Part shown: in pieces, positions 2,496-48,900 of the stretch
How the letters are laid out: each line of letters opens with the position of its first letter
Numbering within the stretch: the first letter of the stretch is position 1
Source: a virus
Lineage: Duplodnaviria > Caudoviricetes
IMG/VR virus record: IMGVR_UViG_3300033388_002585
Coordinates: 1-61,768 of that record
Length of the DNA: 61,768 bases
Direction: 5' to 3' (one strand)
The notes under the pieces: model-generated
Seen by the model: the letters and a program-made list of their open reading frames with translations, nothing else
Database searches by the model: none
Told to the model about the DNA's origin: nothing
Made by a program: the position numbers and the translations under genes

Positions 2496-3239
2496 TTAAA
2501 TCCACGCCGGTTCTTTATCTGCATCCGGCCATGATTTAATTTGACTTAACACACTTTCCGGTACATCTTCATGCAACCGCGTGGAACCATACTTGTACCC
2601 ACAGACCGGACAAGCCTTCATTAAGACCCCCTCTAAATGCTCTGTTTCACGTACACAGTTTGATGTCTTTGTTTCCCTGGACTTTTCTTTGTAGCATTCT
2701 GGAAACGGTAAATCTTTTTGTTCATAGGGTAAAGACAGGATTAAAATCTCATCTTTTGTTAACTCTATTTTTTCACCCTCAATAAGTCTTTTTATTGCAA
2801 GGTCTTTAATAGCTTTCCTTTTTTCCATAACTTCAGGCGTCAATTGATAAGTTGCCACTTCCAGTCTTTTCTTACCCCAACCTTCAGCTCTCTGATGCTT
2901 ACATCCGGCCCTCATATCGTTTAAATGCCATTGTTCCCAAATATCCAGTAAGTCAAGCCATGACTCCCGATCCCATCCCGGTGCGAATTTAATATCTTCA
3001 GGTTTAATCAACTTATCATGCCTGCTATCATCATCAGCCGGATCTCTATGCTCAAATTCCATGTCAATCTGACCACAGCCCCCTCTTGTATCCCCATTTC
3101 TCAACGGGCCAATAACCCCCGTAAAAGATAACCTGTTATTATTGAATTCTGTCTTAATAAAGATATTACCCCCGTGACGTTCTTTGATCTTGCCAATTCT
3201 CATTACTTTGCTTATCTTTACTTCATTTGTCTTTTCCAT
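2496..3239 (-). CDS. Hypothetical phage protein (WHLNDM motif, CPVCGYKYG Zn ribbon)
   Basis: 247-aa ORF with GGAG RBS and the motifs named. Confidence 0.8.
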   Translation of the reverse strand: MEKTNEVKISKVMRIGKIKERHGGNIFIKTEFNNNRLSFTGVIGPLRNGDTRGGCGQIDMEFEHRDPADDDSRHDKLIKPEDIKFAPGWDRESWLDLLDIWEQWHLNDMRAGCKHQRAEGWGKKRLEVATYQLTPEVMEKRKAIKDLAIKRLIEGEKIELTKDEILILSLPYEQKDLPFPECYKEKSRETKTSNCVRETEHLEGVLMKACPVCGYKYGSTRLHEDVPESVLSQIKSWPDADKEPAWI

Positions 3240-3243
3240 GCTT

Positions 3244-3582
3244 TTACGCTCCTTCCCCTGACTCTTTGTTTATATTCTTTATCAACACTACTTCACGCCT
3301 GATTTTCTTGACGCTAATCCAATCGGTCTGAAAAAATGAACCCGCATAATCTTTAACCCAGTATGAATGAAGGAAGCCAACTTCAACCGGCTCACCATCT
3401 GGCCCATTTACGTAGACTTTATTCCTGCCCTTCGGCATTTTGCCATAGTGATCTACCAGAAAACCATTGACGGCTCCAACCGACTCACACTCTTCTTTAA
3501 TTTGCTGTAAATAGTGCGGGGTCTCTGCTAAACTTTTCCTGTAGGTCTCATCAATTTTTACTTCATAATATACTTCTTCCAT
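3244..3582 (-). CDS. Hypothetical protein
   Basis: 112-aa ORF with the conserved junction motif. Confidence 0.7.
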   Translation of the reverse strand: MEEVYYEVKIDETYRKSLAETPHYLQQIKEECESVGAVNGFLVDHYGKMPKGRNKVYVNGPDGEPVEVGFLHSYWVKDYAGSFFQTDWISVKKIRREVVLIKNINKESGEGA

Positions 3583-3618
3583 GTTTTTACGCTCCTTTCG
3601 CTTCTATTATACAACTGG

Positions 3619-3831
3619 TTAATGTTTACTCCTGACATGCCTCTCAAGCGCCCGAAAGTTTTCCTGATAAAATACCTCGAAGGCAACGGGATCATTTCTT
3701 CTTAACCATGTCCCGTATCTATCGACCATGTTCCACGGAACCCGGCCCCCTGCTTCAGGGTGATCATCTACCGGGCATCCGATTTCATTAAGGTCTTCTT
3801 CGGCTCTCTTTTTCGTGTATTTTTCTTCCAT
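3619..3831 (-). CDS. Hypothetical protein
   Basis: Start MEEK after GGGGAAAG; YGTWLRRNDPVAF motif. Confidence 0.65.
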   Translation of the reverse strand: MEEKYTKKRAEEDLNEIGCPVDDHPEAGGRVPWNMVDRYGTWLRRNDPVAFEVFYQENFRALERHVRSKH

Positions 3832-3832
3832 T

Positions 3833-4216
3833 TTACTTTCCCCCTTTCTTCTTATCTTCCGGGTAACTAACACCACTCACCATCCCGTGTCTTTTCATCT
3901 CGACCACCATCCCATCTTCAAAAACATAGGGATCATCCGGGCCACCACACATCAGGAACCAGCGCCCCTTGAAATTAAATACAGTCCCCTGTGGCATAAA
4001 ATCATTCAACCGGGCCTGTGTAACCCGTGTCCGCCATCCATTTGAATCCAGTTTAAAGCTCCCATCTGGATAAATTGTAACTATATCAGTCTCATGGAAC
4101 CTTATCGCTCTGTTTCCATTTGTATACCGTATGCTCAAGGTGTTACGTCTTATAAATCTTGAATCCTTGACTTGGCTCCCCACGTTTTCTAAAATCTCTT
4201 CCTGTGTTTTTCTCAT
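3833..4216 (-). CDS. Hypothetical phage protein
   Basis: IRFHETDIV...LDSNGWRTRVTQARLN; GGAG RBS. Confidence 0.75.
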   Translation of the reverse strand: MRKTQEEILENVGSQVKDSRFIRRNTLSIRYTNGNRAIRFHETDIVTIYPDGSFKLDSNGWRTRVTQARLNDFMPQGTVFNFKGRWFLMCGGPDDPYVFEDGMVVEMKRHGMVSGVSYPEDKKKGGK

Positions 4217-4882
4217 TTACGCTCCCCTTTCTTTCTTTTTATTTGAATTATACGTACTCCAGTCAACCCGCTTTTTTAACGTTTGATCACCCTCTTTCAT
4301 TCCATCATATAACCTGTCATAGTTTAATTGACTTTCACTCTTTTTAACATACAGCGCAACTCCCGCGAATCCTGGAGATACGCTTGCCGGCCTGTATATC
4401 GCAATGGTTTTATACGACCAGTTCATGAATGCCGCCGTATCTGTGCCTTGACTTCGACTATCACTCAGATCAATAAATCTGGTTCCGCATTTAGCATGTA
4501 TATCCTGGGCAAACTGTACGTATCTATACTTAGGTAATGGTGTTAGTCTACACTGAGACGGTCTGAAATTACCTCTCACGGATCTTGCATCCTTTTTTTG
4601 TATAATTGCTCGCAACTCTGTTATAAATTGTTTAAAACTCCCCCGATAATAAACTTTACTGTATGCCTTGTAGAGATTTTCTTGCTGGTTATTATCAGGT
4701 AAAAACATGTTCTCAATATACTCCACCGGCCTTGCTTTCGCCCAACGCTTACCCTTTAACCTTATCACCCGTTTAAACCTCTTGACTTCAGATGTTATCC
4801 GGTTATCCCTTATACCAATAGAATCATTCAGTATCCTGAGAACCAGCAAGACTACATCTATGTTTTTCACAATATCGCTCAT
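4217..4882 (-). CDS. Hypothetical protein
   Basis: Long ORF; likely start MSDIV after AAAGGT. Confidence 0.65.
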   Translation of the reverse strand: MSDIVKNIDVVLLVLRILNDSIGIRDNRITSEVKRFKRVIRLKGKRWAKARPVEYIENMFLPDNNQQENLYKAYSKVYYRGSFKQFITELRAIIQKKDARSVRGNFRPSQCRLTPLPKYRYVQFAQDIHAKCGTRFIDLSDSRSQGTDTAAFMNWSYKTIAIYRPASVSPGFAGVALYVKKSESQLNYDRLYDGMKEGDQTLKKRVDWSTYNSNKKKERGA

Positions 4883-11770: not shown

Positions 11771-12649
11771 ATGTATTGCTTTTATCATTCGGCAGATGCA
11801 GATGGATGTTGCTCGGGCGCGATAGTTAAGCGTGTGTTTCCTAAAGTGAAGTTAAGAGGAATTGATTATGGTCAGCAGTTTCCGTGGGAAGAAGTTGCAC
11901 CTGAAGAAACTGTGTTCATGGTCGATTTCACGTTACAGCCGTTTGAAGACATGATCAGGCTTATTAAGTACGCTGATGTTATCTGGCTTGATCATCACAT
12001 AGCGGCGATCAGAGAGCGGGATGCGTGTGAAGAAGGTTTAATATACTACGGTGAGCAAGAAACAGGGTTAGCCGGATGTGAGTTAACCTGGAATTATCTG
12101 TATCCTAATAAAACAATGCCAATGGCGGTTTATCATACGGGAAGATTTGATGTTTGGGACCATTCTCACGAGTACACTCTTCCCTTTCAATCAGGTCTAA
12201 AGCTGTACAATTCAAATCCAAATAATAACGAGTTGTGGGATGAATTGCTGGAATCCGGTGAGAATAAGTTGTTTTATGAGATTCTTGATAAGGGGCGTGT
12301 GGTTTTGGATTACATAATAGCAGATAACGAGAGATACGCGGCAGCCTGTGCGTTTGAGACCAGCTTTGAAGGATATCGTGTGTTAGCTGTCAATAAGATG
12401 CTTACTAATTCCCAGTTATTTGATTCAATGTTTGAGGAGAGTAACTGTGATTTTATGATGACGTTTGGATGGCGCCGGGGTAAGTGGCTGGTGTCTTTGT
12501 ATTCCCCTGAAGGTGGAGTTGATGTGTCTGTGATAGCAGTGAAGCTTGCCAATAAATATGGTAAAGCCGGAACTGGTGGTGGCCATGCTAATGCTGCTGG
12601 CTGTCAAGTAAATTCAGTGGAGTTTATATTAAAAAATGCAAAAAAATAA
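11771..12649 (+). CDS. DHH-family phosphoesterase (DHH/DHHA1)
   Basis: YHSADADG, VDF, LDHH, VSLYS, GGGHANAAG. Confidence 0.9.
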   Translation: MYCFYHSADADGCCSGAIVKRVFPKVKLRGIDYGQQFPWEEVAPEETVFMVDFTLQPFEDMIRLIKYADVIWLDHHIAAIRERDACEEGLIYYGEQETGLAGCELTWNYLYPNKTMPMAVYHTGRFDVWDHSHEYTLPFQSGLKLYNSNPNNNELWDELLESGENKLFYEILDKGRVVLDYIIADNERYAAACAFETSFEGYRVLAVNKMLTNSQLFDSMFEESNCDFMMTFGWRRGKWLVSLYSPEGGVDVSVIAVKLANKYGKAGTGGGHANAAGCQVNSVEFILKNAKK

Positions 12650-13058
12650 ATGCAAAGATTGCGGCGCAGATTGTAACTATAGAGCCATTAGGTGTAGGGC
12701 TTGTAGTGATAAGAGGCCGAAAAGGATTGGGCCGCATTCACAGATAACAAAAGACAAGATTTCAAAGTCTTTAATGGGAAATGTTCCTTGGAATAAGGGA
12801 ACTGCGAAAATAAAGAAAACGAGAACCCAAAAAGAACTATCAGAAGAAATAAGGTTAAGAATGACTGGAGACAAAAATCCAGCAAAACGACCAGAAGTTA
12901 GAGAAAAAATTAGGCAATCTCTCTTGAAAGCATATATTAACAATCCAGAGATACTTGAAAATAGACGGGCATCTGGGATTAATCAACATTCTGATGTTTA
13001 TACTTCAATTGAATCTCCGATAGCAGAAGTTCTTTTCTTGCCTTCTCTCACACTTTAG
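12636..13058 (+). pseudogene. NUMOD3-type DNA-binding region of a homing endonuclease, apparently lacking the nuclease
   Basis: HSQITKDKISKSLMGNVPWNKG and GDKNPAKRPEVREKIRQS; the ORF stops shortly after YTSIESPIAEVL. Confidence 0.6.
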
Positions 13059-13061
13059 AAA

Positions 13062-13135
13062 TGAGGGGAGTATCTTAATTTTAGAGGGCGGGTCGATATA
13101 CTGACCCGTAGTGCAGAGAACCCTGCCTCCCCTCA
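13062..13135 (+). ncRNA. tRNA-sized cloverleaf-like element, non-canonical
   Basis: TGAGGGGAG/CTCCCCTCA closing stem, CGGGTC/GACCCG and GCAG/CTGC hairpins; no TTCRA loop. Confidence 0.45.
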
Positions 13136-13145
13136 CATTAATAAC

Positions 13146-13221
13146 CGGGGTGTAGCGCAGATGGTAGCGTACCTGATTTGGGATCAGGGGGTCGCGCGTT
13201 CGAATCGCGCCATCCCGACCA
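13146..13221 (+). tRNA. tRNA-Pro(TGG)
   Basis: CGGGGTG/CATCCCG acceptor stem, CCTGA-TTTGGGA-TCAGG anticodon arm, GTTCGAATC T-loop, encoded CCA. Confidence 0.95.
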
Positions 13222-13266
13222 GTTGATAGAAGTAAAAATATAAGGGAATATAAGGAAGGAAGTGTT

Positions 13267-13779
13267 ATGAAATTAATTGAAGCGTTAAAAAAGGTAAAAG
13301 ATTTGCAAAGGAAGGCAGGCGATTTAAGATTACTTGTACGGGATCATTGTGCGATTTCATCATTTGAAACTCAAAAATACCCAAACCAGACCAAACAAGT
13401 AGCAGAATGGATACAAGCACATTCAGATGTATTGAAGGAAATTCTTAAACTCAGGGTTGCAATCCAGAAAACAAACCTTTTTACGGAAGTTGTAATTGAA
13501 ATCGGAGACAAGCAAGTCACAAAAACAATTGCGGCGTGGATACACAGAAGGCGCGATCTGGCGAATGAAGAATTACAGATGTGGAATCAATTAACTGACA
13601 GAGGTATTCAAGAGGGTTTAGCAAAGGGGCCTACTGGCGATCCAGTTGAAATCAGGGTCAATAGATTTTATGATCCCTCAGAAAGAGATACAAGATGTGA
13701 ATTGTTTGCGAGTGAACCATCGATCATAGATGGCCGAATGGAAGTGGTTAACGCAATAACTGATTTAATTGAAGACTGA
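13267..13779 (+). CDS. DIP1984-like helical protein
   Basis: MKLIEAL..KDLQRK, LRVAIQKTN, TIAAWI.RR and a C-terminal N resemble the DIP1984 family by eye; AAGGAAGG RBS. Confidence 0.65.
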   Translation: MKLIEALKKVKDLQRKAGDLRLLVRDHCAISSFETQKYPNQTKQVAEWIQAHSDVLKEILKLRVAIQKTNLFTEVVIEIGDKQVTKTIAAWIHRRRDLANEELQMWNQLTDRGIQEGLAKGPTGDPVEIRVNRFYDPSERDTRCELFASEPSIIDGRMEVVNAITDLIED

Positions 13780-13785
13780 TCTTTG

Positions 13786-14073
13786 AAAGTCCTACAAATA
13801 GAGATAAAAATTGGCAAAAGGGAACGTGGCTACAACGATAAGTTAGCAAGCTCGCAAGGGCAACCAAATGTGAATTGGCGGTGGAGACCATATACTCAAA
13901 CCCTAAAGGCTCAAGGTTCAAGGTGAAAGGCAGTAAGGATCAAGTTGAGCAAGATAGCAAGGGGCAAGAAAGCAAGGTTAATCTCGAAGGAAACGGAGAG
14001 AACGACCTGAAACAAGTTATGTTTTTCTCTTTATCATCCAAAACTTCTCAGGCTTCCTGTTTGGGAGGACTTT
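13786..14073 (+). ncRNA. Candidate structured ncRNA or 3' element with periodic AAG repeats
   Basis: AAAGTCCT-A-CAAATAG pairs with CTGTTTG-GG-AGGACTTT; GCTC-GCAA-GGGC tetraloop hairpin; about 11 spaced AAG units. Confidence 0.6.
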
Positions 14074-14110
14074 TTACAGTATAAAGCATAACAGGAAAAG
14101 GAGCATTAAG

Positions 14111-14287
14111 ATGGAAGATAAGATACAGCAAAGACTCGAAGAAATGGCAGAGAAGGCTGGAATTGATCTCGCACTTCTTAACGAACATCAGTCTTACGAA
14201 CTGTATGTCAAGGCCGAGCAGAGCGTTTTGAATGATTTGGCTGCATTTGGGGATATGATGAGAGACAGGACAAAAGAGGAAGAATAG
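14111..14287 (+). CDS. Small hypothetical protein
   Basis: AGGAG RBS; MEDKIQQRLEEMAEKAGID..., below the ORF-track cutoff. Confidence 0.6.
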   Translation: MEDKIQQRLEEMAEKAGIDLALLNEHQSYELYVKAEQSVLNDLAAFGDMMRDRTKEEE

Positions 14288-14317
14288 GAATGAAAGATAT
14301 ATGGCGGAGGAACAACC

Positions 14318-14641
14318 ATGAACTTAACGCTTAATTTAGAATGGTCAAAGAAGTTGCATGAAGCGGGGATTGAGGGAAAATATAAATATTGCCAATACGA
14401 GGGATTAGATGGAAAATCAGTTGTATGCCCTTCATGGAATTTAATTCATAATACAACAAAGTATCCATCATATACCCTTGAGGAACTCCTTGATATGGTG
14501 GAGGGAGAAGTTAAGGTTCTTCATCTATATAGAGGTATTTGGTATTTCGATTATGGAGGCAGAGTAGAAGAGTTTGAGTCCCTCGATCCTAAAATTTGCG
14601 TGTGCGAGGCATTGCTTTGGCAGAAGGGAGAAGGAAGATGA
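14318..14641 (+). CDS. Hypothetical phage protein
   Basis: GGAGG RBS; LEWSKKLHEAG...PSYTLEELL motif. Confidence 0.7.
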   Translation: MNLTLNLEWSKKLHEAGIEGKYKYCQYEGLDGKSVVCPSWNLIHNTTKYPSYTLEELLDMVEGEVKVLHLYRGIWYFDYGGRVEEFESLDPKICVCEALLWQKGEGR

Positions 14642-17587: not shown

Positions 17588-18082
17588 ATGGGCGATAAAA
17601 TAATCAGCAAGACAAAGAAAATTAAAACAGCAGCACAAAAAAAAGAAAGTGCGTTGACTCTTCGAGCCTTTGAGTATTATTATGGGCTTGGAGATTCACG
17701 CACACTATCCAAGGTTGCCAAGAAGTTTAACAGGACTTTAGGTTCTGTTGAAGGTTGGTCGAGTAAATTAAAATGGCGTGATCGAGTACGTCAGCGTGAG
17801 TTAGATGTAGCTGCTAATATTGCAAAAGAGGGGTTTGAGCAGGCGACCGAGGTAAACAAGCGGATACTCAGTATTATTAAAGCCTCAGTAGATGTAAAAG
17901 TAGTAAAGGGAGAAGATGGAGAAGAAGAGATTGTACCGTTACCGATTAAAAACTTTTCAGACGCACAGAAGGCACATGAGTTACAGGACAGAATATTGCA
18001 CCCGGAGAGGTACAATAGAGCAGGAGACGATGACGAGGGAGGAAATAAAGTTGCTGTTGTCGTTAATATAACAAAGAGTTAA
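17588..18082 (+). CDS. terS: Terminase small subunit (probable)
   Basis: AFEYYYGLGDSRTLSKVAKKF...WSSKLKWRDRV HTH; abuts the large subunit. Confidence 0.75.
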   Translation: MGDKIISKTKKIKTAAQKKESALTLRAFEYYYGLGDSRTLSKVAKKFNRTLGSVEGWSSKLKWRDRVRQRELDVAANIAKEGFEQATEVNKRILSIIKASVDVKVVKGEDGEEEIVPLPIKNFSDAQKAHELQDRILHPERYNRAGDDDEGGNKVAVVVNITKS

Positions 18083-20530
18083 ATGCCTCAAAAACAAAGT
18101 ATTCAGAAACAGCATTCAGTTAATTTTTCTTACAAGTACGCACCCACGTTACAAGCATTCAATGAGTGTAAGAAGCGGATCAGGGCGGTTATAGGGCCGT
18201 TCGGCTCAGGAAAATCATCTGCAATGGTTATGGAGTTGTTCCAGGCTGGATGTAATCAGCTTCCCGATTCACATAACGTTCGCAGGTCTCGCTGGCTTGT
18301 GGTTCGTAATGTATATCGCCAATTAACAGACACCACTATCCCTACCTTTTTTGATTGGTTTCCCCCGTATTACTTTGGTTCATATAATAAAACAGAACAT
18401 CGGTATAACATGTCCATGCCTCTTTCTGATGGTACGGTATTAGACATGGAGGTATTGTTTCGAGCGCTGGATAAAGAAGAGCACGTATCGAATCTTTTGT
18501 CGCTTGAAGTATCCGGGGCATGGCTTAACGAATACCGGGAAATCCCCAAGATAATCTTTGACGCGATTGATGGTCGTATTGGTCGGTATCCTCCCCGCCG
18601 TGAAGTGGGCTGCACCTATCCTTTCACAATTATGGATTCTAACCCTCCTGACCATGAACACTGGTCGTATAAATTGTTTGAAGAAGAAAGAATGAATGAT
18701 GTGGCCCTTTATGAGAAGTATCAGATATTCCATCAGCCTTCTGGTTTATCTAATGAAGCTGAGAATTTACCTTATCTTCCAGAAGGATATTATGAAAACC
18801 TGGCTGCTGGAAAGACTCCTGATTTTGTTCGTGTGTATGTAGATGGTCAGTATGGTTATGTTCGCAGTGGCAAGCCTGTCTACCAAAACTACTCCGATGT
18901 ATTACATTTAGCCTTAAAACCTTTGTCTCCCGTAAAATCAGTTCCGATAATAATTGGTATGGACTTTGCGCTTAATCCGGCGGCTGCTTTTACCCAATTT
19001 ACTCCATCTGGAAACTTTAATGTATTGAGAGAGATTACAGGCGAGGGAATGCCTTTGCGTACTTTTGTAACTGAATTATTAATGCCTATAGTTCATGCGT
19101 ATTACCGTGGGTTCCGTATTATAATTATAGGAGATCCCAGTGGAGTTAAGAGAGCGGATACAGATGGTAGAACATGCTTCCAGGAGTTAATTGATTCAGG
19201 ATTTCATGCGATTCCAGCTAAGACTAACGCAATCCAGGCCAGGTTCGCTGCCATAGATTCTCTCCTTACCAGGATTCAAGGGGGCAAGGCAGTATTTCAG
19301 CTTGATCCCTCTTGTACTATGCTGCGGAAAGGATTTCTGGGTGAATACAAGTTCCCGGAGATTCATTCACGGCATGGATTGATGTATGCGGAGAAGCCTC
19401 TTAAGAACGAATTTTCTCACTGTTTCACAAAAGATACGTTAATAAGATTAGTTGACGGACAAAAAAGAATAAAAGACGTGATAGTCGGGGATATAGTTAA
19501 AACCCCATGGGGAAACAGGAAAGTGTTAAAGGCATGGATGACAAGAAGTAACGCAGAAATAATGGAAATAAACTTATCGGATGGTAGAAAAATTAAGTGT
19601 ACTCCTGATCATAAATTTATTTTAGCTAACAAAAGTGTTGCGTATTGCAGGTCATTGCAGTATAAGGATGTTTTATGTGATTATCATTTAAATTTAAAGG
19701 AGATAGAGACATGGAACATCCAAAGTTTATTGAATTTAAAGGAAAGAAATACAGATTATCCGACGGGGGATATTACAGGGTTGAAAACTGGGGAAAAGCC
19801 ACATGTAATTTACACAGGGCTGTTTGGGAAGATTATACTGGGAATAAAGTTCCTGAAGGATACGTTGTCCACCATATTGATAAAAATGTTTTTAATAACG
19901 ATATCACCAATCTTGAGATTATGCCCAACGGGAAACACGCATCAATGCACACCAGAGAAAGACTTGCCCATGATCCTGAATCATTTCAGCGAGCAATTAA
20001 AATTGCAAGAGAAGCTGCGAAAAAATGGCATGGATCTCCAGCCGGAATTGAGTTTCACAAAAAGCTTGGAAAGCAGGTATGGATCGGTAAAAAGAAGTAT
20101 ATTAAGATTTGTGAAGTATGTGGAGAGGAGTATTCAACGTATTTCCCAACGAGAAGCAAATGGTGTTCTCCTAAATGTCAACAAAAAGCAAGAAGGTTGC
20201 GGGGGGATGACAATGTGGAAAGAATATGTTCTGAATGTGGTGAATCGTTTATTACCAATAAATATAGTGCAACAAAAACCTGCTCTTCACGTTGTGGCGG
20301 TAAACTTGCTGCAAGAAACAGAAGATGTGTATAATATAACAGTAGATGTTGATCATGTATATTTCGCTAATGATGTTCTTGTCTTTAATTGTCATGATGC
20401 TTTACAATATGCCGGGTTAGGTTACGAGGTTATGGATCAGGCTAAAGGCTTAACGGATCTCACAGGAACAATAGTAACACGAAAAAGAGAAGGTGTTGAA
20501 AAAAAGAGAGTGATGGCTGCGTATACATAA
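18083..20530 (+). CDS. terL: Terminase large subunit with intein
   Basis: Walker A GPFGSGKS, Walker B AWLNE, DSNPP, RNase H-like IGMDF and HDALQY. Confidence 0.95.
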   Translation: MPQKQSIQKQHSVNFSYKYAPTLQAFNECKKRIRAVIGPFGSGKSSAMVMELFQAGCNQLPDSHNVRRSRWLVVRNVYRQLTDTTIPTFFDWFPPYYFGSYNKTEHRYNMSMPLSDGTVLDMEVLFRALDKEEHVSNLLSLEVSGAWLNEYREIPKIIFDAIDGRIGRYPPRREVGCTYPFTIMDSNPPDHEHWSYKLFEEERMNDVALYEKYQIFHQPSGLSNEAENLPYLPEGYYENLAAGKTPDFVRVYVDGQYGYVRSGKPVYQNYSDVLHLALKPLSPVKSVPIIIGMDFALNPAAAFTQFTPSGNFNVLREITGEGMPLRTFVTELLMPIVHAYYRGFRIIIIGDPSGVKRADTDGRTCFQELIDSGFHAIPAKTNAIQARFAAIDSLLTRIQGGKAVFQLDPSCTMLRKGFLGEYKFPEIHSRHGLMYAEKPLKNEFSHCFTKDTLIRLVDGQKRIKDVIVGDIVKTPWGNRKVLKAWMTRSNAEIMEINLSDGRKIKCTPDHKFILANKSVAYCRSLQYKDVLCDYHLNLKEIETWNIQSLLNLKERNTDYPTGDITGLKTGEKPHVIYTGLFGKIILGIKFLKDTLSTILIKMFLITISPILRLCPTGNTHQCTPEKDLPMILNHFSEQLKLQEKLRKNGMDLQPELSFTKSLESRYGSVKRSILRFVKYVERSIQRISQREANGVLLNVNKKQEGCGGMTMWKEYVLNVVNRLLPINIVQQKPALHVVAVNLLQETEDVYNITVDVDHVYFANDVLVFNCHDALQYAGLGYEVMDQAKGLTDLTGTIVTRKREGVEKKRVMAAYT
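19421..20389 (+). mobile_element. Intein in TerL nuclease domain (about 323 aa)
   Basis: SH|CFTKDTLI, block B KCTPDHKF, block F DVYNITV, end LVFN|C. Confidence 0.9.
19711..20334 (+). CDS. HNH homing endonuclease nested out of frame in the TerL intein
   Basis: AAGGAG RBS; LHRAVWE, VHHIDKNVFNNDITNLE...H; two CxxC...CS..C Zn modules. Confidence 0.85.
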   Translation: MEHPKFIEFKGKKYRLSDGGYYRVENWGKATCNLHRAVWEDYTGNKVPEGYVVHHIDKNVFNNDITNLEIMPNGKHASMHTRERLAHDPESFQRAIKIAREAAKKWHGSPAGIEFHKKLGKQVWIGKKKYIKICEVCGEEYSTYFPTRSKWCSPKCQQKARRLRGDDNVERICSECGESFITNKYSATKTCSSRCGGKLAARNRRCV

Positions 20531-20672: not shown

Positions 20673-23600
20673 ATGTTGATAAATGTGCAGACTAATGAAC
20701 AGATAGAGAAAGAAAAGAAAATAGAAACCAAGGCTGTTGATGTTGCCGAGAGTGCTGAACTGATAACCAGTCTTTCCGCGTATGTTGATACATGCTGGAG
20801 TGAAGCTAAAGCAGAAAAAATAGAATTCGAAAAGCAGCTTTTAATCAATAAACGGCAAATAGATGGTATATATGATCCTGATAAACTTGCTGCCATAAAA
20901 GAATTTGGATCATCAGAAATATTTGTTTTTATCACAGATACCAAGTGTCGTAATGCGGATGCGTGGGTAAAAGATATCTTATTCCCTCCCAATGAAAAAT
21001 GTTGGGGTATCCGCCCAACTCCACAGGCGGAAATTCCTTCCAACATTCGTGGAAAAATCCTTGAAACTGTTGCTCGGGATGTATTGCAGGGTGCTATGAA
21101 TAATGCTTCTCAAGGTCAGCCTTCCGATCCACTCCAAATTTATAAATCCATTATGTCCAAGATGCCTGAGATAGAAGAACACCTTAAAACGTTTATTCAG
21201 AAAAAGGCTAAAGAGATTGCCGCACAGATGGAGGTTAAGATTAACGATCAGTTGACTGAAGGTGACTGGTATGATGCTGTATTGGGTGTTTTGCCGGATG
21301 TTATAATGGGTACGGGCTTCGTGAAGGGTCCTATATTAAGAAAGCAGAGGGCTAAAAAGGTTGAGGTAGACCCTGAATCAAGTAAGTTTAGTGTGAAGAT
21401 TATGGAAAAAGCAATCCCCAAGTATGAGATTCGGCCTCCGTTTAATATTTATCCATGTCCGGGAAGTACGGGTATCAACGATGGCTATTTGTTTGATCGG
21501 ATTCAAATAACGCCACGGGGGTTACAGGAACTTATAGGGATTCCGGGGTTTGATGAAAAAGAGATTAGATTAGTGTTACAGGAATATGAACAGGGAAGTT
21601 TGCACGACTGGCTTAATCTGGAGATTGATCGTAACCTCAAGGCTATGGATAAGATTGTTACCGGGAGTGTGAATGTATCTTACAATTCTCACAAGATAGA
21701 TTGTTTGGAGTTTTGGGATGCCATACAGGGCAAGAAGTTAAAGGAATGGGGTGTTACAAAGAAAGATATGACTTTCGATGATGATCTTTTTTATGATTTG
21801 TGTGTATGGAAAATAGGCGGACATATTATCAAAGTAATGTTTAACCCTGATAAATTGGGGATGAAACCTTTTTCTAAAGCATCGTTTGAAGAAAAGTCAG
21901 GAAGCTTCTGGGGGCGCGGTTTACCTCAAGTAATAAAAGATGCTCAGCAGGCTGCTAACGCATGTGGTCGAGCCATTATAAATAATGTTGCGATAGGCAG
22001 TGGACCCCAAGTAGAAAGAAACATTGACAGAGTACCGCGTTCAGATATAGCCGATAATATTTTGTACCCATGGCGAGTATGGGATGTAACTAACCAGCAG
22101 GCAATATCCAATGCTCCCGCTCTCAAGTTTTATCAACCCCCTATGGTAGTAGATAAGATTCTCACAGTTTTTGATCGATTTATAAAGATAGCTGATGAAC
22201 ATTCTGGGGTGCCTGCGTATGCTCATGGAGATGTAAGGGTAGGAGGAGCTGGTCGTGCTCTTGCTGATTATGAGAAAGTTTTAACGCCTCAAGGTCCTGT
22301 ATGTATAAGTCAACTTAAAGCAGGTGATTTGGTCGTTAATTCATACGGGTCTGCTTCTACAGTAACAGGAGTATACCCACAAGGTGAATCTGATATCTTC
22401 CGCTTAAAATTTAATAACGGTAAGCATGTTGATTGTGATATGGAGCATCGCTGGTCAGTAAGGACACATCATAATCGTAAATTTAGAACTATGACGACTG
22501 AGGAAATTCTGGATGCGGGGTTATTTAGAAAAACAAAGAAAGATTACAGGAATCCGAGTGGCTGGCGGGCTAAGTGGATGTTACCGTTATTTGATTATAT
22601 AGAGTTTGAAGAAAGGGAAGTAAAGATTGATCCGTATACAATGGGTGCTTTAATAGGAAATGGAGATGCTCGGTGCAGGCTTACGTGTCGAGATAAAGAA
22701 GTTTTCGAGAGGATTCCGTATCCATTAGGAAAAGTTGATCGCAAAGGAGATAGTGCTGCATGGACGCATACGGTTAAAGGAATTAAGTTGGATTATTTGT
22801 CGTATGGATTAAAGTGTAAGTCTGTTGATAAATTTATTCCTGAAGATTACTTATTTAATTCAAGACAGATACGATTGGAGTTGCTTCGAGGCTTAATGGA
22901 TACTGATGGTTGTTGTTCGAAGGAAGGTGGAACTGATTATTCTTCGTCGTCGTTCAGGTTAATTAATGATTTTAGAATACTGGTTGAATCTCTTGGCGCA
23001 ACGGTAGGAAGTATAGGCGAATGTGAGGGTGGCGAATTTGAAGTTAATGGTAGGAAAAGTGTCAGACAAAAGGCATATAGAATTAAATTTAACCTTCCTG
23101 GAGAAAAATTGTTTTACGTTCCAAGAAAGCATAAGAGGGTATTTGATCGGAAGAAAACCCACACATACATAACAGGAATTGAATATATCGGGAAACATAC
23201 AGCAACGTGTATTACCGTGGATTCCCGAGATAGCTTGTTTCTTTGTGCTAATTTAATACCCACGCATAATACAGCCTCAGGGCTCTCCATGTTGATGCAT
23301 GGAGCGGCGAGAGGCATTAAATCTCTTATCAAGACTATCGATGAAAAAATCATATCTTCCACAGTAGAACGTCAGTATTACTGGAATATTGAACAGAAAG
23401 AAAACTTCGGGCTTATATGTGATTTTCAGATTGAGGCTCGGGGAAGTGCTGCTATGCTGGCTAAAGAACAGCAGTTAACCCGGATGGTAGAATTCGCGCA
23501 GGCAACTGCTAATGAATATGATATGAAACTAATGGGAGCTGCTGGGCGGGCTTATATAATAAGTGAGATAGCAAAGCAATTCGGGTTAGATGTTGATAAG

Positions 23601-23795
23601 GCTTTCCCGATGCTTGATGCGATTATGAGGCAAGCTGAGCAACGGGAATTAGGGAGTGAAAGTGGAGTAGAAGGCAGAGGAGAGGAGAGTGCTGGTGCTA
23701 TGGGAGGTCAGGGACCGGCAGCGAGAACTCTTGACATGGCTGGAAATCCTGCTCAGGGTACTGATATGAATGAGTTTTCAGCAGATAGAGGATAA
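20673..23795 (+). CDS. Portal protein with intein
   Basis: Follows terL; GTGFVK, FWGRGLP, SGVP...TASGLSML portal-like motifs. Confidence 0.85.
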   Translation: MLINVQTNEQIEKEKKIETKAVDVAESAELITSLSAYVDTCWSEAKAEKIEFEKQLLINKRQIDGIYDPDKLAAIKEFGSSEIFVFITDTKCRNADAWVKDILFPPNEKCWGIRPTPQAEIPSNIRGKILETVARDVLQGAMNNASQGQPSDPLQIYKSIMSKMPEIEEHLKTFIQKKAKEIAAQMEVKINDQLTEGDWYDAVLGVLPDVIMGTGFVKGPILRKQRAKKVEVDPESSKFSVKIMEKAIPKYEIRPPFNIYPCPGSTGINDGYLFDRIQITPRGLQELIGIPGFDEKEIRLVLQEYEQGSLHDWLNLEIDRNLKAMDKIVTGSVNVSYNSHKIDCLEFWDAIQGKKLKEWGVTKKDMTFDDDLFYDLCVWKIGGHIIKVMFNPDKLGMKPFSKASFEEKSGSFWGRGLPQVIKDAQQAANACGRAIINNVAIGSGPQVERNIDRVPRSDIADNILYPWRVWDVTNQQAISNAPALKFYQPPMVVDKILTVFDRFIKIADEHSGVPAYAHGDVRVGGAGRALADYEKVLTPQGPVCISQLKAGDLVVNSYGSASTVTGVYPQGESDIFRLKFNNGKHVDCDMEHRWSVRTHHNRKFRTMTTEEILDAGLFRKTKKDYRNPSGWRAKWMLPLFDYIEFEEREVKIDPYTMGALIGNGDARCRLTCRDKEVFERIPYPLGKVDRKGDSAAWTHTVKGIKLDYLSYGLKCKSVDKFIPEDYLFNSRQIRLELLRGLMDTDGCCSKEGGTDYSSSSFRLINDFRILVESLGATVGSIGECEGGEFEVNGRKSVRQKAYRIKFNLPGEKLFYVPRKHKRVFDRKKTHTYITGIEYIGKHTATCITVDSRDSLFLCANLIPTHNTASGLSMLMHGAARGIKSLIKTIDEKIISSTVERQYYWNIEQKENFGLICDFQIEARGSAAMLAKEQQLTRMVEFAQATANEYDMKLMGAAGRAYIISEIAKQFGLDVDKAFPMLDAIMRQAEQRELGSESGVEGRGEESAGAMGGQGPAARTLDMAGNPAQGTDMNEFSADRG
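22257..23270 (+). mobile_element. Class 3-type intein with LAGLIDADG endonuclease in the portal (about 338 aa)
   Basis: Ala1 (ALADYEKV), block B EHRW, block F TCITV, PTHN|T; MGALIGNG and LRGLMDTDG motifs. Confidence 0.88.
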
Positions 23796-31652: not shown

Positions 31653-32579
31653 ATGGGAGTTGCAAGAGCCGCTGGCTATCCTGATTATACAAATTCAGGC
31701 ACAAGTCGCTTCATACCTGAAATTTGGAGCGGCAGGATGATTGTAAAGTTTTACAAGGCAACGTGCCTGGCTGAAATTTCAAACACGGATTATGAGGGCG
31801 AGATCAAGGAAATGGGCGATACGGTCATTATTCGATCTACCCCCACAATAACTATCAATGATTACTCCAAGGGGCAGAAGCTGGATTATGAGAATCCCGA
31901 GTCCACCCCCCTTGAATTGCTTATCGACAAAGCCAAATATTGGGCATTTGAGTGTGATGACATTGATTTATACCAGTCCGACATTAAGTTGCTGGACAAC
32001 TGGTCTGGTGATGCCGCACAGCAAATGAAGATCACCATTGAAACGAAGGTCTGGGAAGATATTTACGATGATATGGATTCGAGTAATACTGGCGCAACTG
32101 CTGGTAAAGAATCTTCATCGTTTGATATCGGCACTTCTGGTTCTCCTGTTCAGATCACAAAGGCCAATGTTCTCGATTATATCGTGGATTGCGGTACTAT
32201 TCTTGATGAGCAGAATGTTCCCGAGACCGAAAGATGGTTTGTCATTCCGGCGTGGATGGCTGGTCTTATCAAAAAGTCTGATTTGAAAGATGCTTCCCTT
32301 ACTGGAGATCCTCAGTCTCCGATTCGTAATGGGCGCCTGGGTGTAATTGACAGGTTTACCCTCTATTCTTCTAACACTCTCTATTCGGTATCCGATACAG
32401 TAACCTGTTATTACTCAATGTTCGGGCACATTTCTGCGCTTACTTTTGCTTCCCAGATTACCAAAACAGAACAGCTCAGAGCAGAAACAACGTTTGCGGA
32501 CCTTGTTCGAGGTCTTCAGGTTTATGGGTATAAAGTTATAAAACCCGAAGCTCTTGGCACGCTGTATTGCAGGAAGTAA
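31653..32579 (+). CDS. Major capsid protein
   Basis: FIPEIWS, NTDYEGEI..GDTV.I, LDEQNVP..RW, RNGRLG.IDRF, F.D.VRGLQVYGYKV. Confidence 0.9.
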   Translation: MGVARAAGYPDYTNSGTSRFIPEIWSGRMIVKFYKATCLAEISNTDYEGEIKEMGDTVIIRSTPTITINDYSKGQKLDYENPESTPLELLIDKAKYWAFECDDIDLYQSDIKLLDNWSGDAAQQMKITIETKVWEDIYDDMDSSNTGATAGKESSSFDIGTSGSPVQITKANVLDYIVDCGTILDEQNVPETERWFVIPAWMAGLIKKSDLKDASLTGDPQSPIRNGRLGVIDRFTLYSSNTLYSVSDTVTCYYSMFGHISALTFASQITKTEQLRAETTFADLVRGLQVYGYKVIKPEALGTLYCRK

Positions 32580-45911: not shown

Positions 45912-48900
45912 ATGAACATGGATAAATTTGGATTTTCCGAACCTTTTGACCAGGAACAGCCTAACTACAATCCACCTGCCTCTGATGATCCTTTTGGTTT
46001 CTCTGAGCCTGAAGATGATTTGTCTCTTCCTATGACTTCTACTCGAGAACCTCGTGAGCCTCATGGAGTAACTCGTAGCTTTGGTGATGATTATACTCCT
46101 CCAGATGATTATACTTCTCCAATGGGTGCAATACCCATGGGTGAAGAAGGTAAATATGGCTGGGGTTTCTCGGATGAGGATCAACAAGCTGATAAATTCG
46201 GGGACAGGTTTGGATTTTCTGAGCCTGAAGCCATACCTGCGAGCGCCATACCTGTAGCCAAAAAACCCTCTTTTTTTGAGCATATAAAACAACTTCCCTC
46301 GGACATTATGGGTGGTTTAATCGATTATACTGAAATGGTTCCGCGTGAATTGCGTGCATTGCCTGGTGGCCCCAAAGCTGGCCAAGATAAAGAAGGCTTA
46401 ATGGGTCGTATGGTTACCGGGATTGAAAAATACAAAGAAACTCACCCTCAATATAAAATGCCGGAGAGCAAAGGTATATGGGGAGCAATTCATGGTGGCC
46501 TTAGAGCTGCTGCTACATCTATGGCTGCTGGTCTTCCGGGTATGGCTGCCGGGGCTGCTACTGGCGCTGCTTTGGGTGGTGGTGTTTTCTCTCCGGTTAC
46601 TGCGTTTATTGGCGGTGTCCTTGGATACGCTACCAGTGGAGCATTACAATTTGGGTTAAGTCAATATGATTCAGCCATGGAGGAAGCCCTTGATGCTGGT
46701 AAATCAATGAAACAAGCTGAATCTTATGCGTTAAAAACCTCTATATATGAAGGTGTGTTTGAGTTCGGTGCAGACCTTCTCGAAGGCGCTACGTTCAAGT
46801 TAGGTAGCATTTTTACAGCCCCCGTTAAGAATATAGTCAAAGCATCGTTGAGAGACTTATTTACCCACAATCTCAAGAATGCGGTTAAGCGTACAGCCAT
46901 GATAGCAGCTATCGAGACCCCTTCAGAAATGTTAACGGGGGGAATGCAGGCCGAGGCTGCTCATGATATAAATCTGGGCGACATGAGATTCTGGGATGCG
47001 GCTAAACAAGCTTTCGGACCTGCATTTGTGGCTTCTCTTATTTTCGGTGGAATAGGTGCTGCTGGAGTGTATAAGTATAAGAAAGGAGTCAAAGCTGCGT
47101 TAACTGATCCAAGCAAATCCTTTGAAGAACGCATGACGGCGATTAAAACTATATCAGAAGTCATTAAACCATATTCACCTGAAGCTGCCAATGCGTGGGA
47201 CATTGTAGGCTTTGATGCTGTAGCTCAGAATAAACCCATAGACCTCGATATGAAGTTTGATAGAGAAAGCGATCAAGACTACAAGGTAGCAGAGGAAAAA
47301 TTGAGACAAACTCGGCTACAACTTAATGTGCCAGAACAAAAAGTTACCAAGGAACAAAGGCAGGAATTTATAAATGAAGACTTTAAGGGTAAGACCCCTG
47401 TGGCAAAAGAAGACACCCAGCAGTTTATTGCAGTTGGTGGTCCTGCTGGAGCGGGGAAATCCACATCTATCGACAATATAATGAAGGATAATAAGCTGGA
47501 TATCGATACTTTTGTCATTATTAATCCTGATGCATACAAGGAGCGAGCTGGATATACCGGAGATCGGGCAACATTATTCCACGCAGAAAGTTCTCAGATG
47601 GCAAGAGAAGCTTTAAAACGAGCTGTGGATCAGGGATATAACGTGTTATATGATAGCCAGATGAGAAATTTTGATGTTGTCAGCGATGCTGCTGATACTG
47701 TTATTAATAATGGTGGGAATGTTGGTATAAGTTTTACTGATACTGATTATGTAACCTCTCGCGCCAATACTGAAATACGGAGAGTCAGTGGCAGGGAAGA
47801 CAGATATGTTCCTGATACCGCGATAGTTAATGGAATTAACGGAGGAGTTCCAACGCTCATTGAATTGGTAAGGAAATATGTTGACAATCCTGCTGTGATG
47901 TTTAACATTGAGTCTAATAACGTAGAGTTTGGAAATCCTGTTCCCATTGTTGTTAATGACAGGATTGTAAATCAAGAAATGCTTCATAGGCTCATGTCGA
48001 CTCCCTATGATTCGATACTAACACCGGAAGGAGGAATAAAATATGAAAGGTCCATTACTGGCGGACGAATTAATACGGAGACTATCCAACAAGCCTCAGA
48101 GGAGGTTGAAAGTAGGGTCAATGCTCGGAGAGTTGTCAAAGGCACTAAGGAAAGTCGCGCAGTCGGAAAACTCCTTGCAAGAAGAACAACCGATACCCTC
48201 GAAGACTACGTTGCCAAGATAATTGATGAAAAGCATGGCGGTATATTTGTATCTCCGAATGTAGCTGAACCGGTTGAAGGTGAATCGCGGGTAGATAGCC
48301 TTGAGAAAGCATTAAAGTATATCAAATCCACGGGGCAAGCTTCATTTGCTTCTATCATGAAGGATATAGGTAAGCGTGTAGATGTTACCGTTAAGACTTT
48401 TCCAGCTCTTGGGACATGGGGGCAAACAGTAGAGAATTCTTTATTCGCTGTTATCCCCCATGTAAATAGCTTTGATAAGCTTCGATACATGGCGGCTGCT
48501 CAAGGATTAATCGGAAGACAAAAGGCTGTCATTGCCTTCATGATGGATCGTGACGGAGATCAAAGATTGTATGAGGTAGATACTGGCAGCACAGATATAC
48601 GTGAAGTTCACGCTACATTTGATGAAATAGGCATAGAAAGCCATACCTTTGCGCTTAACAATGATGGAACTGTGAAGGCATTGGTATATGATTATGCTGG
48701 AACTGAAATAGAAAACATACAGGAGGTAGGGAAACGTTATGGCAAAGAAATTAAAATCCACAAAGGGCAAGGCGAATATCTCGCGTCCCCCGAAGAAACA
48801 AGACCCCAAAGTGCAAAGTTTTTCAGAGAGATTACAGATCGCTATGAAGAAGAATCCGAATATGGTTTGGGCCGATTCAGAAAATGGGAAAGGACTGCTC

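Follow-up and report, generated by a model that had tools for sequence, protein, structure and literature searches.

What occupies the 331 nt without a convincing gene that lie, in the tailed phage record IMGVR_UViG_3300033388_002585, between a small DIP1984-like gene and the small open reading frames (ORFs) that begin at 14111? The window analyzed here is that whole record of 61,768 bp, a complete phage genome with direct terminal repeats, and a first reading of its letters (the original prediction) had proposed a structured RNA with periodic AAG triplets that works with the protein encoded just upstream. We find that positions 13786-14073 are a conserved structured RNA, and that this RNA pairs obligately with the DIP1984-fold gene in genomes; comparative sequence analysis leads us to consider it somewhat probable that the ~290-nt region is a gene for a stable pseudoknotted RNA working with the protein as a phage RNA-protein particle. 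The two parts of the pair are:

13267-13779, + strand: encodes the RNA's constant partner, a 170-aa protein of DIP1984 fold (DUF6847-like; ORF, profiles, and model)
13786-14073, + strand: the whole conserved RNA (~290 nt), from the outer P1 pair to its partner (nhmmer and pair counts)

Fold of the RNA and its AAG repeats

The nhmmer match to the element in the window runs from 13787 to 14077 (E 7e-63), and the element starts 6 nt past the stop codon of the 170-aa gene. Helices were read from alignments and then tested by pair counts against shuffles and against slid partners, giving the following parts from 5′ to 3′:

13786-13801, + strand: P1 5′ arm, AAAGUCCU-A-CA-A-AUAG, of the closing helix; pairs with 14057-14073
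13801-13810, + strand: junction GAGAUAAAAA, nearly invariant and single-stranded (columns at least 90% conserved in alignments A3 and A4)
13811-13814, + strand: 5′ strand of pseudoknot helix PKa, UUGG; pairs with 14038-14041 in the P5 loop
13817-13824, + strand: 5′ strand of pseudoknot helix PKb, AAAGGGAA; pairs with 14025-14032
13825-13847, + strand: 5′ H-type pseudoknot; stem A 13825-13827 with 13835-13837, stem B 13829-13832 with 13844-13847
13848-13904, + strand: variable linker, not alignable; only local hairpins in the window, including a GCAA tetraloop (13850-13861), and a whole tRNA gene in some relatives
13905-13977, + strand: AAG repeat tract; half-site A at 13906, 13913, 13920, 13927, and 13935, half-site B at 13951, 13959, 13966, and 13974
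13982-14001, + strand: P4, a short local hairpin; UCUC 13982-13985 with GAGA 13998-14001
14006-14052, + strand: P5 hairpin; CCUGA..AAGUU 14006-14018 with AACUU.UCAGG 14042-14052, the loop holding the 3′ strands of PKb (14025-14032) and PKa (14038-14041)
14051-14057, + strand: junction GGCUUCC between P5 and P1, nearly invariant (invariant or at least 90% conserved columns in alignments A4 and A6)
14057-14073, + strand: P1 3′ arm, CUGU-U-UG-GG-AGGACUUU; pairs with 13786-13801

Pair counts over 102 distinct full-length elements carry this fold: i) 82.4% of 4249 alignment cells pair, versus 67.2% in shuffles; ii) 39 of the 44 proposed pairs change on both sides, in 785 cells versus 269 ± 19 shuffled; iii) none of 500 shuffles reaches any pairing measure of the real alignment; and iv) pairing falls to 35-51% when partners are slid by 1 to 3 columns. 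In a 28-sequence set, 85.4% of cells are paired and 35 of 44 pairs change on both sides. G-U cells (271) outnumber A-C cells (140), an excess that fits a + strand RNA. The single-sequence folding energy is unremarkable (z -0.65); it is the comparison of sequences, and not thermodynamics, that supports the fold. A covariance model of the 106-position 3′ core (R1) scores 106.2 bits at 13972-14074 of the window, and an R1 scan of the phage found no second copy.

Among the individual helices, both-side changes are seen in all four pairs of PKa (86-91% paired, for example CUGG/CCAG, CAGG/CCUG, UAGG/CCUA, and CCAA/UUGG), in all eight pairs of PKb (helices 3 and 4; alignment A4, 102 sequences), and in 6 of 10 pairs of P5 (89-95% paired; A4). 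Since PKa and PKb cross P5, the 3′ half of the RNA forms a pseudoknot with the 5′ strand. In the 5′ H-type pseudoknot, stem A is 86-90% paired, and stem B, which joins the stem A loop to a segment 3-6 nt downstream of stem A, recurs in the same place, reaching 5 bp or more in 59 of the 68 sequences that could be scored, and its letters differ widely among them (mean 5.85 versus 4.28 bp in shuffles). P4 is weak: three core pairs are supported and the outer pairs unsupported, the middle pair reading UA in 11, CG in 8, GC in 3, UG in 2, and AU in 1 of 26.

The original prediction had drawn a long-range stem between 13786-13801 and 14057-14073 and had advised that homologs be compared for it. That stem is P1, and its coordinates hold exactly; the comparative pair counts across homologs support it, with both-side changes in 14 of 14 pairs and 85.1% of cells paired in the 102 sequences. 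A GCAA-tetraloop hairpin that it had also enclosed is indeed present in the sequence, at 13850-13861, but sits in the nonconserved linker; a further hairpin, near 13996-14029, was not supported, with 72.5% of cells paired versus 68.6% shuffled and 74.7% after a one-column slide of its partner. The pyrimidine arm of that hairpin is also the PKb tract, and pairs better with the 5′ strand in 74 of the 102 sequences (18 ties, 10 worse). The two pseudoknots, the division of the repeats into two half-sites, and the tRNA genes embedded in relatives all go beyond what had been proposed.

About 11 periodic AAG triplets, mostly 6-9 nt apart, had been noticed from the letters of the window, and they stand out clearly against controls. 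An unbroken chain of 10 AAG at 6-9 nt spacing spans 13906-13976, including an extra AAG at 13942 in the spacer between the half-sites, and an eleventh AAG lies at 13987; when 347 control windows (700 nt each) of this phage were scanned, the longest chain was 5 in two windows, 4 in 10, 3 in 36, and none was found in 299. Across the family, AAG spacing is 7 nt in 211 cases and 8 nt in 171, with a second peak at 14-16 nt where one unit reads AUG or ACG, and AAG density is 7.9 per 100 nt versus 3.2 shuffled; Tandem Repeats Finder reports periods of 7, 8, and 15 only. The family alignment resolves two half-sites of ~5 and ~4 units, separated by a spacer of ~10 nt, with the unit logo K-N-A-A-G-(G). 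No conserved pairing of the repeat tract was found (the half-site spacer gives 5.39 versus 5.40 bp in shuffles), and a pairing of the spacer with half-site A was discarded as no better than shuffles; to judge from the alignments, the repeats therefore look free to bind.

The linker between the 5′ pseudoknot and the repeats holds a same-strand tRNA gene (ARAGORN) in 52 of 138 loci, equivalent to 36 of 91 distinct elements. These embedded tRNAs are complete and carry many anticodons, and the Rfam tRNA model confirms 19 of 20 tested loci at 41-72 bits; examples, by our locus numbers, are L006, L008, L010, L012-L018, L021, L024, L026, L027, L031-L033, L035, and L037. Some linkers keep tRNA fragments only, such as a 21.5-bit remnant in L080, and the window linker consists of plain hairpins. 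We infer that the linker is a permissive site exploited by phage tRNA genes. Whole tRNA arrays lie beside some elements, L024 having 14 further tRNAs at 2594-4460. ARAGORN also reports a tRNA with anticodon tca (labelled SeC) inside the element of L079 (2093-2164), and one with anticodon tta (labelled Stop) directly after the element of L041 (2918-2993); both are possible phage suppressor tRNAs.

Linkage of the RNA to a DIP1984-fold gene

The tight coupling of RNA and adjacent gene assumed in the original prediction is seen across homologs. In the DNA of 150 loci from IMG/VR and metagenome contigs, together with the window, an nhmmer profile made from 39 distinct downstream regions matches 139 of the 151 sequences that hold a homolog of the gene, always on the strand of the gene. 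Six of the 12 sequences without a match (L059, L084, L085, L089, L092, and L121) have little or no downstream DNA, and four further ones (L065, L067, L068, and L069) carry distant homologs. In 123 distinct loci the element lies downstream of the gene in 119, at most 40 nt from the stop codon in 93, 41-200 nt from it in 16, and more than 200 nt from it in 10, sometimes with tRNA genes between the gene and a distant element; in the other four it lies upstream, ending 20-39 nt before the start codon. When IMG/VR was seeded from the RNA side with two short patterns, 39 loci were returned: nhmmer finds the element in 12, and the protein is encoded in all 12; the other 27, with neither element nor protein, matched the patterns by chance. 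In genome bins, gene and element occur together at 7 of 7 loci whose proteins are at least 45% identical.

No other gene family occurs in more than nine of 76 loci with 2-kb flanks, the larger “families” being antisense shadows of the gene itself. The terminase of the window has no match in five other carriers, of which the one with a phrog_2 terminase has it elsewhere and on the other strand; synteny of the module with packaging genes was looked for and rejected. Given the linkage, and the lack of any other conserved neighbor, we conclude that the conserved unit is a two-part cassette of gene and RNA residing in otherwise different phages.

The 170-aa protein matches the NCBIfam profile DIP1984_fam (NF038048) with E 2.7e-10 and 40.6 bits, under the 70-bit cut-off, and the Pfam profile DUF6847 with E 8e-5 and 23.1 bits, under the cut-off of 27, and so falls short of curated membership in either family. 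An AlphaFold (AF2) model built on an alignment of 30 homologs has a predicted local distance difference test score of 84.6 and shows a helical bundle with two beta hairpins. Foldseek aligns this model over its full length with 3kdq, the crystal structure of DIP1984 from C. diphtheriae (E 2e-4; template modeling score 0.69/0.76), and VIA-align gives Z 12.7 and a root-mean-square deviation of 3.4 over 149/152 residues at 24% identity. In the fold search of the Protein Data Bank (PDB), 3kdq was the sole full-length match, the other rows covering only the N-terminal helical hairpin; the PDB sequence search found no relatives, so that 3kdq is reached by fold only. The label “DIP1984-like” given originally to 13267-13779 is thus correct as a fold, with profile scores under their cut-offs, and no function comes with the fold. 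On the strength of the model, the protein appears to be a divergent phage branch of the DIP1984/DUF6847 family.

Metagenome proteins include 846 homologs at E≤0.001, from sediment, groundwater, soil, and other habitats; a PF20935 hit is precomputed for many of the close ones, and matches in the ESM Atlas fall only into unnamed or DUF6847 clusters. A PHROGs search with the gene gave chance-level rows only, and PADLOC gave no hit. For GenBank phages, the protein search of 50,697 records was empty and the DNA search returned tRNA only, so that no cultured carrier is found there; a literature search on DIP1984/DUF6847 returned one unrelated mention of DIP1984 and none of DUF6847, and no function on record.

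Six loci encode much more divergent proteins, 28-30% identical, whose homology is established by hhalign (probability 99.6%). Downstream of the gene, on the + strand, each of the six has AAG chains of 4-5; chains of at least 4 occur in 12 of 347 background windows. The first chain begins 124-144 nt past the stop codon in four of the six, and several appear by eye to have two half-sites around a hairpin, followed by a similar-looking 3′ part. Their unit is K-N-A-A-G-W, with G after AAG in 8% of units versus 53% in the main clade. AAG chains beside homologs this distant would be expected if the protein recognized the repeats directly, and the shift of the motif with protein clade counts for a relation between protein and repeats.

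Two bacterial DIP1984 genes above the curated cut-off were found in 2 of 401 genomes sampled. One of them (L224:1000-2100) follows two tRNA genes and precedes a tRNA 3′ fragment, has no AAG repeats, and looks like an island integrated at a tRNA.

A candidate RNA-protein particle and its rivals

How might such an RNA and such a protein work together? We lean toward the view that the protein binds the AAG units as a multimer, forming a ribonucleoprotein (RNP). In the fold found here, P1 joins both ends of the RNA, the 5′ strand pairs with the P5 loop through PKa and PKb, and the 5′ pseudoknot and P4 complete a compact core; between the core halves lie the variable linker and the tract that has no conserved pairing, with ~nine K-N-A-A-G units in two half-sites. 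In such a particle, several protein copies would load on the repeats, roughly one per unit, by analogy with TRAP or HutP on spaced NAG triplets, and the core could position or cap the repeat array. The RNA may be cut out of a polycistronic transcript; the linker would tolerate cargo, and usual tRNA processing would then release an embedded tRNA, after which the RNA would consist of two pieces joined through P1, PKa, and PKb. A fuller version, which we offer only tentatively and regard as doubtful in its entirety, is a new class of phage RNP in which a double-pseudoknot scaffold with two K-N-A-A-G arrays carries ~nine copies of the DUF6847/DIP1984-fold protein, serves also as a platform for phage tRNA expression and processing, persists as a two-piece RNA after tRNA excision, and moves as a cassette between unrelated tailed phages.

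Several observations weigh against a particle of this kind. Linkage by itself would also suit an RNA regulating the gene, or a role of the protein in processing the RNA. Locus L100, with ample flanks, has no element, and the element of L130 is truncated, with ~70 nt of the 5′ part left. The RNAs of the distant clade are hardly recognized by R1, the 3′ core model, which scores 18.8 bits (E 0.027) in L068 and has no match in L065, L069, L070, or L158. Neither bacterial DIP1984 gene has an AAG chain nearby, from which it follows that the DIP1984 family does not need such an RNA in general; and the motifs common to all DIP1984 proteins (MKxxEAL, KTN, and E..N near the C-terminus) are present in both bacterial members too. 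In this stretch of L130 (1975-3000), a glycosyltransferase-like ORF follows the remnant and runs to the end of the contig, which suggests that the element was truncated or interrupted in the linker.

The most serious rival, though a rather unlikely one, is an RNA-only machine like ROOL or GOLLD, acting alone or with host factors (ribosomes, tRNA enzymes), the protein being linked otherwise as a chaperone, a processing factor, or a member of the same cassette. A simple landing pad for protein would hardly call for so elaborate a core, and the tRNAs in 36 of the 91 distinct elements recall what the accessible portion of Kretsch et al. 2024 (bioRxiv 10.1101/2024.12.08.627333) describes for phage RNAs, GOLLD and ROOL both being found close to tRNA islands and the linker of GOLLD at times containing tRNAs. 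That portion gives no known protein partner for ROOL, while here the partner gene accompanies the element in 12 of 12 RNA-seeded loci and is the sole conserved neighbor, and the repeats change with the protein clade. Alternatively, the element could belong in cis to the mRNA of the gene, as a 3′ (sometimes 5′) operator controlling the gene or its neighbor, or as a structure that stabilizes or processes the message. Its start 6 nt past the stop codon on the same strand, the next ORF beginning 37 nt past its end, and the lack of a conserved terminator (a T-run follows 37 of 102 elements) would all suit a cis element; its position varies, however, upstream or downstream, or 200-500 nt off with tRNAs between, and the downstream genes are not conserved. 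To our knowledge, autoregulatory operators are far smaller than ~290 nt with two pseudoknots and nine repeats. We judge a cis element improbable.

Two further possibilities deserve much less weight. A repeat RNA beside a small protein gene superficially recalls ToxIN, and the original prediction had allowed for an RNA-antitoxin pair, in which, as in type III-like toxin-antitoxin or abortive-infection systems, the repeat RNA would neutralize a toxic protein. This idea gained no support and seems to us very improbable: PADLOC has no hit; the helical-bundle fold matches only 3kdq and does not resemble known type III toxins; the repeat unit measures 7-8 nt rather than ~36 nt, and in most loci the RNA comes after the gene, not before it; and the module belongs to operons of complete, lytic-type phage genomes. 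Least credible of all is a site acting as DNA, such as iterons of a replication origin or of a packaging site, or else a short protein-coding gene, namely the 69-aa ORF at 13875-14084. Short direct repeats are typical of iterons, and that ORF is open in the window; but the compensatory changes in 39 of 44 pairs and the excess of G-U over A-C show a single-stranded fold of the + strand, and no synteny with terminase is seen. As the original prediction had preferred, the region is a structured RNA and not the 69-aa ORF: the 7-8 nt spacing of AAG is out of frame, and the ORF is not conserved, the longest ORF inside an element having a median of 48 aa (at least 60 aa in 28 of 102) and a stop-free frame crossing the repeat tract in 42 of 92 elements.

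We wish to stress what an RNP of the repeat RNA and the DIP1984-fold protein would mean. Large structured RNAs with strong covariation are rare, and the few phage classes described, GOLLD and ROOL among them, still have open functions (Kretsch et al. 2024, bioRxiv 10.1101/2024.12.08.627333; Weinberg et al. 2017; accessible portions of both). The present element class comes with one constant partner protein and with an array that is an evident candidate for binding, making its function directly testable. If true, this would be the first function for the DUF6847/DIP1984 family, whose structure 3kdq was released in 2009, as a sequence-specific binder of single-stranded RNA. The element would also be a second, independent case of phage tRNA genes nested in a structured RNA, and bears on why tRNA clusters travel with ornate RNAs; and the 846 homologs across sediment, groundwater, soil, and other metagenomes suggest that the module is widespread in uncultivated phages.

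RNA ends, phage setting, and comparison with known systems

Where the RNA begins and ends was approached through candidate signals. A look-up of sequencing runs for the stretch returned one DNA run, with 0.28 of its words, and no RNA run. Of 101 elements, 26 have the motif TTCTTTGA[AC]A upstream of the conserved CCUAC of P1, at a distance of 9-19 nt, versus 3% in shuffles (13775-13785 in the window); it may act as a promoter element of the phage or as a signal for processing, and its variable distance shows that it is not a fixed -35/-10 pair with the invariant GAUAAAA. A promoter TTGAAA-17-AAAAAT right past the stop codon was rejected because it would leave the P1 5′ arm outside the RNA, and a terminator hairpin at 14044-14068 followed by a T-run was rejected because it is not conserved and its letters belong to P1. 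In locus L001, whose protein is 60% identical, a strong promoter-like TTGACA-17-TATATT follows the stop codon (3520-3548); the 5′ core there is not recognizable, nhmmer matches the 3′ 180 positions only, and the repeats read AUGG as often as AAGG.

PHROGs annotation of the phage places the small and large terminase subunits at 17588-20530 and the major head protein at 31653-32579, with an endolysin and further late genes on the + strand, while genes for helicase, ATPase, and nuclease occupy the - strand toward either end; the RNA-gene module belongs to the early part of the rightward gene block. Immediately upstream of the module, a DHH phosphoesterase gene (11771-12649) is followed by an ORF with a NUMOD3 motif (12636-13058) and then by a tRNA gene that directly precedes the 170-aa gene:

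13146-13221, + strand: tRNA-Pro(UGG) (ARAGORN; Rfam 64.6 bits)

In relatives L097 and L098 the same tRNA-Pro comes after the element, and relatives have clusters of tRNA genes beside or within the module. The 140-aa NUMOD3 ORF, which carries this DNA-binding module of homing endonucleases and overlaps the end of the DHH gene, has no catalytic domain match. Farther away, a 1040-aa ORF (20673-23795) matches head-tail adaptor/portal-type profiles over residues 35-519 and terminase, helicase-loader, primase, and helicase profiles over residues ~523-873, and may be a fusion or contain an inserted element such as an intein; a single 2,696-aa ORF in the tail region (45912-54002) matches only PHROGs families of unknown function.

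Has the element been seen before? At gathering score, Rfam 15 finds only tRNA-Pro in the whole window; in 12900-14400 at E≤10 it gives nothing beyond rows of 15-17 bits, the level of chance, and in related loci only tRNA in the linker, for 20 loci at gathering score and for 20 more at E≤5; the families the element does not match include GOLLD, ROOL, tmRNA (transfer-messenger RNA), RNase P, Y RNA-like, and CsrB/Rsm. A tmRNA would have a tRNA-like domain made by its two ends together with a tag reading frame, and ARAGORN calls none in the window or within any element. In the viral contig L036 it reports a tmRNA at 1306-1661 (tag ANPDLALQAA*), ~340 nt upstream of the DIP1984-like gene and outside the element. 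A likeness to RNase P was dropped, GAAAGUCC of the window being a variable P1 segment in relatives with no Rfam match, as was a Shine-Dalgarno mimic or ribosome sponge, AAGG not being kept in the distant clade. In the accessible portions of the literature on GOLLD, ROOL, and phage tRNA, and on structured RNAs from 2021 on, including Fremin et al. 2023 and two 2026 preprints, the element is not described. The element could be one of the 8,495 unnamed IMG/VR candidates of Fremin et al. 2023; six sample ids of element loci are absent from the searchable part of its supplements.

Like GOLLD and ROOL, the element is phage-borne, multi-pseudoknotted, and found at tRNA clusters, and like GOLLD it sometimes has a tRNA in its variable linker (accessible portions of Kretsch et al. 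2024, bioRxiv 10.1101/2024.12.08.627333, and of Weinberg et al. 2017, the latter describing the tRNA and prophage neighborhood of GOLLD). The element differs from both in its AAG array and in its dedicated partner gene, ROOL having no known protein partner in Kretsch et al. 2024; and it is ~290 nt, versus 580 to more than 800 nt for GOLLD and ROOL, with no match in sequence or structure to any Rfam model.

The protein shares its fold over the full length with the DIP1984/DUF6847 family, with weak profile matches, and differs from the two bacterial members examined, which are without AAG-repeat RNA nearby. ToxIN likewise has a repeat RNA encoded beside a small protein gene, also in mobile elements; the present pair differs from ToxIN-type systems in unit length, gene order, and protein fold, with no defense-library hit and no sign of cutting into units. 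Type III antitoxins have units of ~34-36 nt upstream of a toxin recognized by defense profiles, and here no such profile matches and the RNA is downstream in 119 of 123 distinct loci. With CsrB/RsmZ sponges the element shares many short purine motifs (A-N-G-G-like) on one RNA, which could bind numerous copies of a protein; unlike them, its units lack conserved pairing and the gene of its putative partner lies in cis. GGA is the motif that CsrA requires, for the most part in hairpin loops, and multiple GGA is not what the repeats offer: the invariant core is AAG, and the second base after it is mostly C or U.

The closest parallel on the RNA side is with TRAP and HutP, RNA-binding oligomers of Bacillus that bind (G/U)AG and UAG repeats, respectively, and form beta-rich rings on mRNA leaders to control termination. 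As in their targets, spaced NAG-type triplets lie in unpaired RNA, this being the side of the likeness seen here, and the 7-8 nt spacing and 5+4 layout resemble the 7 nt per unit and two half-sites of HutP. Unlike TRAP and HutP, the candidate partner has the helical DIP1984 fold, and the repeats lie inside a large pseudoknotted phage RNA with no evident attenuator; rather than overlying an antiterminator/terminator pair in a 5′ leader, the tract is inside a closed fold and mostly 3′ of the gene. We conclude that the element is a new structured RNA class.

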